A stretch of 64,000 nucleotides of DNA, taken from NCBI GenBank assembly GCA_964016885.1, contig OZ024760.1, positions 9,734,001 to 9,798,000 on the forward strand. Reading direction: 5' to 3'. A program made the translations under genes and the position numbers. Source of the DNA: Eledone cirrhosa. Taxonomy: Eukaryota. The notes beneath the pieces are model-generated. The model worked only from the letters and a program-made list of their open reading frames with translations. It searched no databases and was not told where the DNA came from. This document shows, in pieces, positions 10,222 through 40,449 of this stretch (the first letter of the stretch is position 1; every line of letters starts with the position of its first letter).

Positions 10222-10640
10222 TAATGAAGGAAATGTGGTAAGGAACCAGATGGACCATAACGCACCAAAGTACTCAATACTTAGGGTAGTAGAGTGGGTA
10301 ATAGGAACGAGTAGGACCCCGACGGCTGAACTCAAGCCGTTTCGACGGCTAATTCTGGACGGAATTAGCCGTCGAAACGGCTTGAGCTCAGCTGTCGGGG
10401 TCCTACTCGTTCCTATTTACATTCATTTAATTTATTAATATTTTATTTGAGTGACCCGAATCTTCCTGGTCGTTTATTTTCGGCTGCATGGGTGATTTTA
10501 GGCATGACCTCTATGTGTTGGTATTTTAACGATAGTTATAGCTCTGATTTTTCCAAATTATTGAGCCCTCTGTCACATATATCGGATATTGTTTATCGTG
10601 ATTTCGTGGGCTGATATTCCGATTCTCGATTATTCTACTA
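10222..10640. mobile_element. Fold-back element carrying mirrored 3' halves of a hammerhead
   Basis: Palindrome 10300-10417; GAAA-CGGC-loop-GCTG-TC at 10374-10396; same family as 40197-40449; in (TA)n. Confidence 0.7.
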
Positions 10641-10742
10641 TATATATATATATACAGAGAGACAGAGAGAGAGAGATAGATAGATACAAAGATAAACAAA
10701 CATATATATATATATAAATAAATATATATATATATATATATA

Positions 10743-10802
<60 letters not shown>

Positions 10803-10931
10803 CATATATATACATATATATATATATACATACCCTTGCAAGCAGGGAAAAGCGGACGTAAAATGAAAATGATGATATATATATATATATATATAGATGT
10901 ATATATATATACATATATATATACATATACA

Positions 10932-10965
<34 letters not shown>

Positions 10966-10970
10966 TATAT

Positions 10971-11029
<59 letters not shown>

Positions 11030-11037
11030 TATATATG

Positions 11038-11089
<52 letters not shown>

Positions 11090-11111
11090 TACCTATATAT
11101 ATCTATATACA

Positions 11112-11149
<38 letters not shown>

Positions 11150-11302
11150 TATAGATATATATAGATATATATATATATATATATAGATATATATAGATAT
11201 ATATATATATAGATATATAGATATATATATATATATAGATATATAGATATATAGATATATATAGATATATATATATCTATATATATATATATATCTATAG
11301 AG
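10638..11302. repeat. (TA)n/(TAGA)n microsatellite field
   Basis: Direct inspection; includes an isolated SINE/LINE tail at about 10832-10875. Confidence 0.95.
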
Positions 11303-11320
11303 AGAAATAGATGAACTTAC

Positions 11321-11352
11321 CTGAGATAATGTAATGTTTACCTGGATGAAGT
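11321..11352 (-). other. Candidate 32-nt exon of minus-strand transcript
   Basis: Minus strand: TTTCATTTCCTTTTCACTGTAACATCAG acceptor and perfect CAG|GTAAGT donor. Confidence 0.4.
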
Positions 11353-11475
11353 CTGATGTTACAGTGAAAAGGAAATGAAAAAGGTGTTAATTATCTCCCC
11401 ACCCCACCCCCCTCTGTCATCTCCCCCTCCCCTCCTTAATCTCTCACACACTTCTTTCTTCCAATCTATCCAATT

Positions 11476-36613: not shown

Positions 36614-36873
36614 CATGGAACTCTTTTAACAATCTTTTGATCTTATATATTATGTATACTCCAGTCCTACAAACTGTAGAGTGCTTCTTATCCGATATCT
36701 GCATTGCTTTATTGTACTACAATAAAACTAACCTCCTACATATATATATATATAATCATCATCATCATCATCATCATTTTACGTCCATTTGCATGGCAGG
36801 TTTTCTACAGCTGGAGGCCCTTCCTATCACCAATCACTTTACAGAGTGTACTGGGTGCATTTATCATGTAGAC

Positions 36874-37530
36874 CAGTGGTCTCCAACCTATTTCATACCA
36901 CAGACCGGCTTCATGCCGGACAATCTTTCCTTGGACCGGTAGTTGCACATATGTGTCATTTAAATATATTTCATTAAAGGAAGCCATAAAAAAAAGAACA
37001 ATTTATTGAAGGGAAGAAAAAGTATATATTCGTTTGACTCTCATGTAAATCTTTTAAAATTAAAGTCCAATATTCAATTTATCATCATCATCATCATTTC
37101 ATTTTACGTCCGCTTTTTCCCTGCTTGCAAGGGTGGGACGGGAACTGATACTGGCTTGATTTCTACAGCTGGATGCCCTTCCTAACACCAACCTCATTTA
37201 CAGTGAGTGCTGGGTGCTTTTTTGCCGTGGCACCTCCACGACCACTTTGCAGTGGAATGATAGCGACCCCCAGTCCCTATCATCTCATTTCTACAGCTGA
37301 GTAAACTGGAGCAATGTGAAATAAAGTGTCTTGCTCAAGGACACAACACATCACCCGGTCTGACAATTGAACTCACAACCTTTCGATTGCAAGGCCAATG
37401 CTCTAACCACTAAGCCATGTGCCTCCTATCTATTATATAATTTTAAACAAGTCAATTATTTCTTTGTGGCCTGGTAGCAAATGATCCCCGGACTGGTACC
37501 GATCCGCAGCCCGAAGTTTGGGGACCTCTG
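36874..37530. mobile_element. hAT (Charlie-like) MITE interrupted by a SINE
   Basis: TIRs CAGTGGTCTCCAACCT / AGTTTGGGGACCTCTG; 8-bp TSD-like ATGTAGAC / GTGTAAAC. Confidence 0.75.
37081..37426 (-). mobile_element. SINE family B, full length
   Basis: Near-identical to 28551-28900. Confidence 0.9.
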
Positions 37531-38034
37531 GTGTAAACCGCCCATAATAGAGAGGTTGTTGTGCACTTGACACAAATGATAGGTCTTCTCAGCCCTGTGT
37601 TGGCATAGTTTCTACAGCTGGATGCTCTTCCTTTCCCCAGCCATCTTACAGCCTGTACTGGATGCATTTTGTTTGTAGCCCTACCACAATTGAAACTGAC
37701 TTATTTTACCTAAAGGGCCCTGTTAATCTTTTTGACATTGTTTCTATTACTAAAAGTCCTGCCCAATATAAACTGACACACAGAATGTACAGTGTACCCT
37801 CTGTCATGGTGCCAGCACTAGGGAGGTGTTATCAGTCATTAACTGAAGAACATGTCCCACCTCTCTCCAGCCCTCCCATATCCATGCCTGTGTTTGTGTA
37901 TTTATATACTCATACATATAAATGTATGAGTATACATATACACACACACACGTCAGCATATGGAAGACATTTCTAAAACTAACAATAAATCAATTGAATC
38001 CTGACCTTCTGTACTCTAGTATTATGCGTCTGTT

Positions 38035-38210
38035 GGCAGTAATCGGTAGAGCATCATACACCATGCTTTGCGGCATAGAGTTACGGCCCTTTGCGTTCTG
38101 AGTTCAAATTCTGCCTAGGTTAGCTTTGCCTTTCATCCTTACGGGATCAATAAAATAAAGTACCAGTAATGTACTGAGGTTGATTTAATCGACTTTCCAC
38201 TCCCCCAAAA
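38035..38210 (+). mobile_element. SINE family A
   Basis: Same head and body as 2440-2655. Confidence 0.85.
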
Positions 38211-38751
38211 TTATTATGTCTCCAATAAGATCCCCATTCAAGGGTCTCTGGTACTGTGAGGGTTAAGATCCCCATTTAAGGGTTTCTGGTATAAAGGGTT
38301 TTGATGTTGATAGGATGAAGTATTTAGTACACTCTAGAATACATGGTAGCCACAACTCAGCAGAAAGCAGATATTAAGGGTGACTGTGACGATGCTCTAC
38401 CGATTACTGTCAGAAAGCAGATATTAAGGGTGACTGTGGCCTGAGTATATTTGTCATCTTTGTACCGATATTGTAGCTGGGCTTTCATCATCATCATCAT
38501 CATCATCATCATCGTTTAACGTCCATATTCCACGCTTTTATGGGTTTGGACGGGTATTTTCCCACTTGAGGCAAGAGTGGTTGTCTTGCTCGCATAGGAC
38601 TGTCTGGCGGGTTTTCTACGGCTGGATGCCCTTCCTAACACCAACCACATTTACAGTGTGGACTGGGGGGTTTTTACCGTGTTACCTACATTTATATAAT
38701 TCATTTATATAATTAGGTAATTATATTTTGAGTAGTATGTTTTCCATTAGT

Positions 38752-38962
38752 TTAACCCTTTAGCATTTAAACCAGCCATATCCGATCAGAATTCTCTCCT
38801 CTTTCTGTTCAAACCGACCATAACCGATTGCTCATACTTATGTTAAGGCATTGTTCTCAAAATAAATATCAAAATCTCGTAGATTCGATATTATGTGAAG
38901 TAAAGTGTTTACCATGAAAATACAATAGTAAATACAGAGTAATGTAAATGGTAAAGGGTTAG
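38752..38962 (+). mobile_element. piggyBac-type MITE
   Basis: TTAA-CCCTTTAGC...AAAGGG-TTAG. Confidence 0.8.
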
Positions 38963-39019
38963 GCTATGTAGGGTTGTGTAAGGAGAAATTATATCTACAG
39001 AAACTGTAATCACTCTGAC

Positions 39020-39213
39020 CTGCTGAATATGATGAAAAATGGAGACAGAAAGTCAAGGGAATCTATACATGCAGTGTGACCTATTGATTGGTGGGGTCCT
39101 TTTACAGAGTACCACGATAGCATATGACTGTGACCTCATTATAGTGACTGGGGACTTGGTAACCATGGAGTGCATGGTAGATATGGATACGGGGGAAGAG
39201 GTGAGTATAATGA
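39020..39213 (-). other. Candidate exon 2 (194 nt) of minus-strand transcript
   Basis: Strong acceptor TTCTTATATTTTATTTTTCCAG; donor GCAG|GTCAGA; stops in all three frames. Confidence 0.5.
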
Positions 39214-39399
39214 CTGGAAAAATAAAATATAAGAACTGTACACACACACACACACTCACACTCAATAGAAACAGTTGGTACCTAATTTAATTTGTTGTGG
39301 AACTTTAATTACATTTTACAAACATTCCCTACCGCACTCAGTTTAATTGTAACAGTATAAGAGAGAATATGTATTGATATATTAAAAAAGTAATAGATA

Positions 39400-39596
39400 T
39401 GTTTCTTTATTAGCCACAGGGGCACAAAAGAAGGGGACAAATACAAAGGGGGAAGTTTACATACAATAAAAACGTGTAAAATGTTATCACAAATGCAATT
39501 TAAAAAGTTAGTCGATTTTCCCCAATAGGGGGAGACAGTTCATATGGGTAACACATACCCCCGCAAAAATGTGCAACCCTCAACTCCAGGAGTACG
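39400..39596 (-). mobile_element. L1/Tx1-like LINE 3'UTR insertion with TSD
   Basis: Matches 9203-9398; flanked by direct repeat AAGTAATAGATA (39388-39399, 39597-39608). Confidence 0.8.
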
Positions 39597-39626
39597 AAGT
39601 AATAGATAGAAGTATAGACAACTGAC

Positions 39627-39860
39627 CTGTCAAATCTCCCCGGGGAACGATGGCGAAATCTCCCACCCACTTTGGGGTTAGTGAGATATGTCTTCTCTTC
39701 TGAAAATGGGTATAGACTTCATTATATAAAATCTTCCCATTTTGTCTCATTTCTCCTCATTTTAGGACACCTTTTCCATGGTACTCCCCATTGCCGTTTT
39801 TAGAGGTTGGCGGGTCTGAGACAATTATTTTACGAAGAAGAAAACCGCCATTTTACTTTG
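39627..39860 (-). other. Candidate first exon of a spliced minus-strand transcript (lncRNA or long 5'UTR)
   Basis: Locally CpG-richer unique DNA starting at AAAATGGCGG, several short uORFs, donor ACAG|GTCAGT at 39627/39626. Confidence 0.55.
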
Positions 39861-39929
39861 AAAACAATAATTTCGATAAAAGTATCTTTAAAAGAAAACC
39901 CAAATTAACAGGTTTCAAGGGAGATAACT
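39845..39929 (-). promoter_or_regulatory. Putative promoter: AGTTATCTCCCTT motif plus YY1-like AAAATGGCGG
   Basis: Motifs at 39917-39929 and 39845-39854 (minus); same order as at 53617-53651. Confidence 0.55.
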
Positions 39930-40196
39930 ACAAAACATTTTGAGTAATTTCCCTTCCAATATTATTTTCTCGAATACGAGTTATCAATGATGCACTGGGT
40001 AATTGCTGGCCTTGTGCCTAAAAGTAGAAACAGTTATATGATGTATGTGAATGGTACAGGTTGTACTGTAGTATTCGTGTCTGTAGCATTGTCGTAGTGG
40101 TCCTAGAATAGCGTCTTCTTGCGATACGAGGACAGCAGTGGCTTCAGTATGGTGGGGTCTAGTATGAATGGTCATTCACACACATATATATATATA

Positions 40197-40449
40197 TAAC
40201 GAAGGAATTGTGGTAAGGAACCAGATGTACCATAACGCACCAGAGTACTCAATACTTAGGGTAGTAGAGTGGGTAATAGGAAAAAGTATGACCCCGACGG
40301 CAGAGCTCAAGCCGTTTCGACGGCTATTTCTAGACTAAATTAGAATTTTTAGCCTGATAAATAAATAGCTCGGGCTATTTTCTAATTTAGTCTAGAAATA
40401 GCCGTCGAAACGGCTTGAGCTCTGCCGTCGGGATCATACTTTTTCCTGT
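40197..40449. mobile_element. Fold-back element with mirrored hammerhead 3' halves
   Basis: Arms about 40278-40345 / 40379-40447; GAAA-CGGC-TTGAGCTCT-GCCG-TC at 40407-40429; (TA)n both sides. Confidence 0.75.

Follow-up and report, generated by a model that had tools for sequence, protein, structure and literature searches.

Endonuclease-bearing (EN+) Penelope-like elements (PLEs) are known to insert with an adjacent, inverted and truncated copy and with a tail on one side only (Craig et al. 2021, PMC8557442; Arkhipova et al. 2013, PMC3846280). For Poseidon PAc, a PLE protein was described in vitro that cuts and extends both target strands and uses two internal start sites (Frangieh et al. 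2024, PMC11167929). How PLE inverted repeats form, whether a sense or an antisense RNA is copied, and whether the hammerhead ribozyme cuts in vivo are open questions in PMC8557442, PMC3846280, PMC4209133 and PMC11167929. We analysed a 64,000-nt stretch of the Eledone cirrhosa genome (GCA_964016885.1, contig OZ024760.1, positions 9,734,001 to 9,798,000 of the forward strand; hereafter the window), which holds two related palindromes, copy A at 10300 and copy B at 40278. We hold it quite likely that the stubs of this family are head-to-head Penelope-like products, in which both target strands prime reverse transcriptase (RT) on one sense RNA, and the complementary DNAs (cDNAs) run off its capped 5' end and are joined.

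The preliminary description of this DNA had assigned 10300-10417 and 40278-40447 to one family, and the alignment of the two copies agrees. The arm 21-mer gave 55,036 exact matches in the 3.0-Gb genome, against 0 for the reversed control, and many of these are minus/plus pairs with starts 29-49 apart. Positions are numbered from the T of TAGCC (0), minus being upstream and plus downstream. Most insertions are stubs of about 190-250 bp; they number tens of thousands, and their 5' boundary is sharp. Their arms are unequal: one runs about 80 nt further into a tail ending at (TA)n, and the other halts at a fixed +51. In a tail-anchored sample of 86 copies (from the first 90 fetched regions out of 100 listed places), 66 had an inverted arm nearby, nearly all ending at +51. 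Stubs have often landed in the TA flanks of stubs belonging to their own or to a different family, forming nested clusters (L013, L040/L041, L057, L060 and L118).

The long inverted copies that were fetched include the parent element. In locus L061, two pseudo-long terminal repeats (pLTRs) 3,057 nt apart enclose an open stretch of 695 codons with YRDD, DKT, a CxC linker and a VIY..YIG nuclease motif, all common to its relatives. The parent also has an RW(R/K) motif and a CxxC near the C-terminus, is about 3 kb long and inserts into (TA)n; the linker reads CxC-X5-C in relatives, and its third Cys is Y or F in the two copies translated. Pfam and PDB searches with the parent open reading frame (ORF; P0001) resulted in no match, and a homolog search resulted in 637 relatives at E<=1e-20, of which none was informatively named among the 120 listed. 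Among 40 aligned members, two match RVT_1 and two match GIY-YIG, and the atlas neighbours of the parent ORF carry HTH_animal, GIY-YIG and RVT_1. Judged by its predicted protein, the parent is an EN+ Penelope-like element with a single ORF, RT followed by a GIY-YIG-type endonuclease, between pLTRs. The Hydra-clade motif set (DKT, RWK-like, CxC-X5-C) and (TA)n targeting are present with a degenerate linker Cys, which gives a putative placement by motifs.

Copies of this family (family 1) that are not folded back were represented by 61 sequences. They read ACCCC-YTGANAA-GCT-CGGCTA, then a loop of about 37 nt over which stem II closes, and then the 3' half. The preliminary description was right that both arms of both window copies carry stem II 3' strand-GAAA-CGGC-loop-GCCG-TC, that the palindromes derive from a retroelement and contain a genuine hammerhead-type motif, and that most copies lack its 5' half. 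It had also placed the lost CTGANGA half directly at stem II, replaced there by the reverse complement of the arm. The absence of the 5' core from both copies holds, but the core belongs 47-55 nt upstream of the stem II 3' strand and reads (T/C)TGANAA. Unfolded copies, for which the description had suggested looking, do exist; they contain essentially no CTGANGA, which formally goes against it, yet they carry a plausible variant hammerhead. The expected layout GACCCC-CTGANGA-GACGGC occurs in none of the unfolded copies read, the literal string itself not having been searched. A canonical CTGANGA ancestor at the core position was rejected, as the core pattern with A or G at position 8 gave 2,044 matches, with no G among the 100 listed, compared with 14 genome matches for G at that position.

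Forty-one of the 61 unfolded copies have a U3-A8 core, a known PLE hammerhead variant (PMC4209133), and 20 have the mismatched C3-A8. The features of a type I hammerhead (Watson-Crick 3-8 pair, GAAA, NUH and three helices) were all found in the former and are incomplete in the latter. The minimum-energy fold of the L061 3' copy is a three-way junction, with P(stem II) 0.89 and P(stem III) 0.82. An Rfam scan of the window resulted in no hammerhead family, only microRNA-type matches to hairpins and simple repeats. From its sequence, the motif is a plausible variant hammerhead. The mismatched C3-A8 subtype (18 of 28 copies with TCCTACTCG; L031-L060) has still multiplied, and copy A carries this subtype word. 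In L061:451-575 (minus), the predicted extended stem I closes at +50, adjoining the fixed short-arm end at +51; the proximal RT start may therefore sit at the 3' foot of stem I.

The preliminary description had expected the axes to be non-random, and the arm ends do pile up at -10 and just inside it. In the tail-anchored sample, 39 of the 47 long arms at risk end within 0..-16, a rate of 0.049/nt against 0.0064/nt downstream and 0.003/nt upstream, and the pile-up is understated, as the parser stopped about eight rows too early. Short arms also end there in 43 of 66 cases. Genome-wide, 7,024 strict oriented palindromes (spacer of up to 32 nt allowed) were found. Among 100 listed rows, short arms peak at -10 (23 rows), no arm of either kind passes -15, and the 14-nt spacer of copy A recurs in 22; a smaller peak in this listing lies at -4. 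Arms that seem to end at -11 to -13 may in fact stop at -10 and carry an untemplated A.

The position of the peak coincides with the layout of a promoter. RNA polymerase II (Pol II) core promoters place a TATA box about 30 nt upstream of an initiator, at which the capped transcript starts. In the unfolded copies, YYAGT with its A at -10 is present in 57 of 61, and this A stands 29-32 nt behind a TATA-like stretch overlapping the stem II 5' strand, in a strong form (TATTTA/TATATA) in 27 and a weak form (TATTCA) in 33; CCAAT lies 87-92 nt upstream in 42. The junctions point the same way. Both arms end exactly at -10 in 405 elements, and the next cDNA base was C in 71, G in 29 and T in 0 of 100 listed ends, A being excluded by the design of the pattern. 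At -9, C followed in 19 of 100 listed ends (Fisher p ~1e-13 against -10). The commonest join at -10 was C-A-G (17 of 50 elements), and 30 of 50 elements had the extra C on both arms, which implies two run-off events. An extra G on the sense strand, as found at full-length L1 5' joins, is known to reflect a copied cap (PMC11702581), and the pLTR of D. virilis Penelope is known to contain a promoter (PMC2377424). From the DNA, -10 is likely a capped Pol II start within loop II, and the pile-up likely marks an RNA 5' end rather than a helix.

We propose that both strands of a cut (TA)n target would prime reverse transcription on one sense RNA, and that the two cDNAs would run off its likely capped 5' end at -10 and then be joined head to head. 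The junction would form by end joining, through 0-4 nt of microhomology or untemplated bases, with trimming. The RT start sites would lie just 60-140 nt behind -10, in the 5' pLTR, so that most events would give stubs. The promoter would be nested in the hammerhead, its TATA-like box overlapping the 5' side of stem II and its start in loop II; a promoter-started RNA would thus lack the UUGANAA half and would not cut in cis. The preliminary description had the fold delete this half; it is instead likely absent because transcription starts between the two halves. A complete ribozyme would be present in read-through RNA alone; the long inverted copies and copy B would stem from such RNA left uncut, and the class of ends at +31 described below from such RNA after cutting.

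Several counts bear on the proposed pairing of two cDNAs. Both arms have the same subtype word in 25 of 32 cases (0.20 by chance), and the 100 listed copies that include the 5' half comprise 27 head-to-head pairs against one tail-to-tail pair. Long arms pass -16 in just 8 of 86 copies. All seven elements whose partner is visible within 1.5 kb have a partner past -16 as well (37 loci, most partners being out of view). In 19 of 66 rows, or 12 after the removal by eye of seven parser artefacts, the short arm extends beyond the long arm by 15 nt or more, and the reverse occurs in five; joints of this kind are also present in short-read contigs of one study.

A second end class begins right after the GUC. 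Long arms starting at +31 gave 313 matches, a count inflated by a G run, against 40 at +30 and 23 at +35. We read 41 junctions from 40 regions, the first of 74 non-artefact rows: both arms end at +31 in 12, nine of them joined by a lone A or T, and cap-type bases stand at 3 of the 24 ends in these +31/+31 junctions. Seven of the 20 fetched +30 controls are likewise +31/+31 joins. No clear difference between core types was seen for the +31 class. The class fits self-cleavage in a minority of templates, as judged from genomic ends.

Copy A is the modal run-off product. Its inverted arms, 10300-10355 and 10362-10417, are 56 bp long, and its RNA fold has z = -19. The long arm (10223..10360, minus strand) covers the 3' part of the pLTR from -9, the base just downstream of the inferred RNA start, through the hammerhead 3' half to the tail end at (TA)n. 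Its one-sided tail (10223..10299, minus strand), a concept taken from PMC11167929, lies between two putative RT start sites at +51 and about +128. The unpaired centre (10356..10361) is the family's modal 14-nt-spacer junction with a private base at 10361, and the inverted short arm (10362..10417, plus strand) runs from -4 to +51 with the stem II 3' strand, GAAA and stem III, whose loop is palindromic (TGAGCTCA); the GUC cut is predicted between 10396 and 10397.

Copy B is likely a rarer read-through product, for both of its arms pass the start, which would need read-through RNA. Its inverted arms, 40278-40345 and 40380-40447, are 68 bp long and have a private TCTAGA variant in common. The long arm (40197..40369, minus strand) runs from -43 to the tail end, with the one-sided tail at 40197-40277; it passes the inferred start (40336), takes in the TATA-like TATTTATT (40360-40367) and halts inside the stem II 5' strand without the core. 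A sense fragment follows (40370..40379, plus strand; stem II 5' strand, about -47 to -38, read from the sequence), joined through an AGC microhomology, then a gap of about 18 nt in the short arm, which covers -19 to +51 (40380..40449, plus strand). The shared mirror at stem II that the preliminary description had proposed is not borne out: copy A joins at -9/-4, and copy B has a long arm to -43 and a piece from about -47 in its short arm. Neither window copy holds both core halves in the alignment, and neither reaches the core at -53..-47. For copy B alone, the stem II helix may have affected the axis; of eight long arms passing -16 in the tail-anchored sample, only one ended within -17..-60. 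Both window stubs are themselves likely inert.

The alternative that survives best, and that we still consider unlikely, keeps the capped end. A single cDNA would run off it, self-prime as a hairpin and be copied back, and a nuclease would resolve the product at +51. This would explain the cap base, the shared variants and the coupled arm lengths equally well, and the junction bias given below suits such an ordered process. In 30 of 50 elements, however, both arms have the extra C, which implies two run-offs; short arms carry sequence that the long arm lacks, and +51 fits a second RT start such as that of Poseidon PAc (PMC11167929).

Two further palindrome families bear on the role of the ribozyme. 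Family 2 (15,283 matches) includes the palindrome at 58111..58243, with a canonical CTGATGA hammerhead and its axis at 58177 on an initiator-like A; the preliminary description had correctly put this fold-back at the 5' edge of stem I. Its unfolded copies have CCAAT, TATAAATA at -30 and then CCAGATT, the initiator-like A standing 30 nt behind TATAAATA. In 19 palindromes, chosen from short pairs only, none of 38 arm ends passes 25 nt, the initiator A being at 24, and all four clean ends on this A have an extra G. In family 3 (1,901 matches; palindrome at 8383..8745, window 8564), arm ends never pass the A of CCACTATCC; its spacing behind a TATA-like box resembles the 20 bp noted in a rotifer pLTR (PMC3846280). 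The boundary is thus inside loop II in family 1, 7 nt upstream of the core in family 2, where such a start would keep the ribozyme whole, and about 80 nt upstream in family 3. In two of these families it keeps a constant distance of 29-31 nt from a TATA-like box upstream; the TATA-initiator spacing of about 30 nt is found in families 1 and 2 and is absent from family 3. As its distance to the ribozyme varies among families, the axis does not follow the ribozyme. The tails of families 1 and 2 have GTATTGAGTAC in common (window 10223-10300, 40197-40280 and 58050-58110), a motif that lies between the two RT starts and may bind a protein.

These boundaries tell against the trigger that the preliminary description had proposed, in which the structure of the ribozyme causes template switching or snap-back priming. 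Stem II, or the local hairpin AGCCGT-CGAA-ACGGCT, would stall or release RT, and the cDNA would snap back. Family 1 axes do lie near stem II, variants are common to both arms, the local hairpin appears in the consensus fold, copy B stops inside the 5' strand of stem II, and the modal 14-nt register is compatible with a C:G mini-hairpin. We nevertheless find this reading quite improbable. The ends pile up in the unpaired loop II and not at a helix edge, so a structural trigger is not supported, and in the other families the stop has a different place with respect to the ribozyme. The extra C, a cap-type base, is not expected from a stall, short arms reach at least 15 nt further in 12 of 66 rows, and the ORF-bearing arm is the short arm in most long copies. 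The local hairpin has a probability of 0.01-0.11 in one copy; on this value and the boundaries of the other families, terminator-like release by it was rejected as the main cause.

Antisense-template self-priming, or an axis inherited from a few founder palindromes, is very improbable. Self-priming is the published reading of rotifer Penelope head-to-head palindromes (PMC3846280), and TATA-like sequences can be read both ways, but both the extra base and the +31 ends are typical of a sense-RNA 5' end. Founder palindromes were rejected, as different junctions occur in one subtype and the same junctions in several subtypes, each of which has long copies. A stop at a 3' splice site (TTTAG|TCCAG|), or a later central deletion of longer palindromes, is extremely improbable, and the splice-acceptor stop was rejected: AG dinucleotides stand at -10/-9 and -5/-4, ends have their secondary peak at -4, and PLE pLTRs can hold introns (PMC2377424, PMC4209133), but the boundary includes the AG at -10, no upstream exon is joined, and neither the extra C nor the TATA/initiator match of family 2 is predicted. 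An assembly artefact was rejected on the fixed ends, TA flanks, diverged arms and the tail-to-short-arm joints also present in short-read contigs (four contig runs of one study, which may be the source sample).

Double priming on a capped sense RNA is the reading we retain, and the following points weigh against it. The tallies of palindrome spacers, of the next base at -10 and -9 and of the +31 ends were made by eye on the first 100 listed rows, from contigs C1-C3. The TATA-like box is of the weak TATTCA.. form in 33 of 61 copies, its position fixed by homology and not independently found, and the family 3 boundary is 21 nt, not 30 nt, behind its box. A templated CAGA insertion, compatible with 17 of 50 elements, could give the extra C at -10. 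Among the listed rows, about 11 junctions pair a short arm ending at -10 with a long arm ending at -4, and the mirror arrangement was seen once, an unexplained bias. RNAalifold on 22 close unfolded copies resulted in 0 compensatory pairs and preferred a rival fold. Of the 100 listed +31 matches, 26 are G-run expansions, and the +31 class also occurs in the subtype where 18 of 28 cores are the mismatched C3-A8. Copy B is not a run-off product. As a separate observation, two identical cDNA ends in the -10/-4 junction could pair via GGAC with tandem G.A mismatches.

A wider reading remains tentative, and we lean slightly to the doubtful side: PLEs would generate their inverted ends by double target priming on one capped sense RNA, in this family a promoter in the hammerhead would act as a split-ribozyme switch by which read-through RNA could cut and the capped mRNA could not, and the genome would record both the cap and in vivo U3-A8 cutting at base resolution.

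Other features of the window were also noted. The palindromes at 8129 and 56278 (8098-8160 and 56247-56308) are short, with arms of 29 and 27 bp. Further CTGATGA hammerhead motifs of AT-rich families lie at 8191-8250, 8646-8710, 36551-36612 and 59058-59119, those at 8191 and 8646 having a helix III region that is short and self-complementary and would suit folding as a dimer. A long imperfect inverted repeat at 11480-12890 has (CAC)n/(GGT)n tracts round a short core, with about 75% complementarity. Weak, near-threshold tRNA-like Rfam matches at 28833-28890, 32588-32651 and 50789-50846 are likely heads of tRNA-derived short interspersed nuclear elements, and a tandem repeat of units of about 60 nt occupies 55800-56040.

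In L1 twin priming, two primers come from one target break, and the two cDNAs cover different parts of the RNA. In the present family, which would likewise have two primers at one target break, both cDNAs would by contrast cover the same part, which yields a palindrome. Microhomology joins and an extra, cap-derived G at full-length ends are further points in common with L1 (PMC11702581). With EN+ Penelope-like insertion units (PMC8557442, PMC3846280), the stubs have in common the head-to-head inverted 5'-truncated copy, the tail on one arm, (TA)n targets, partial tandems, a pLTR hammerhead and TATA/initiator-like pLTR motifs. They differ in a tail of about 80 nt instead of 30-40, and in the dominance of stubs with a sharp 5' boundary. 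The template indicated here is a capped sense RNA, whereas PMC3846280 leaned towards antisense self-priming without deciding the matter. The parent resembles the Hydra clade of C-terminal EN+ PLEs (PMC8557442) in DKT, RW(R/K), the CxC-X5-C linker of its relatives, the CxxC near the C-terminus, its length of about 3 kb and (TA)n insertion; it departs from that clade in a YUGANAA instead of a canonical core and in the Y/F at the third linker Cys in two copies.

Like Poseidon PAc (PMC11167929), the family would have two internal RT starts at the pLTR-ORF junction, both strands cut and extended, and uncut RNA as the main template. That study did not deal with inverted joins or caps and detected no reads with ends at the ribozyme cut, whereas here the predicted cut is the end point of a minority of genomic copies. 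The PLE hammerheads of Schistosoma (Cervera and de la Pena 2014, PMC4209133) have the same U3-A8 swap, extra nucleotides at the base of helix II, a palindromic loop III and opposite-strand pairs; unlike them, the present motif has a loop II of about 37 nt with a putative promoter start, and a third of its unfolded copies are C3-A8. Cap run-off or double priming for PLE inverted joins was not found in the literature searched, whose coverage was partial; entries for this family or its ribozyme may exist in the supplements of PMC8557442 and PMC4209133. The inverted layout is already known, and the addition made here is a promoter nested in a U3-A8 hammerhead, together with the contrast of cap and cut at the joins. 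To the questions left open for the described systems, thousands of junctions give a base-level answer (a sense and likely capped RNA, two primers and a ribozyme cut in a minority), and such junctions offer a way of mapping element promoters from DNA alone.

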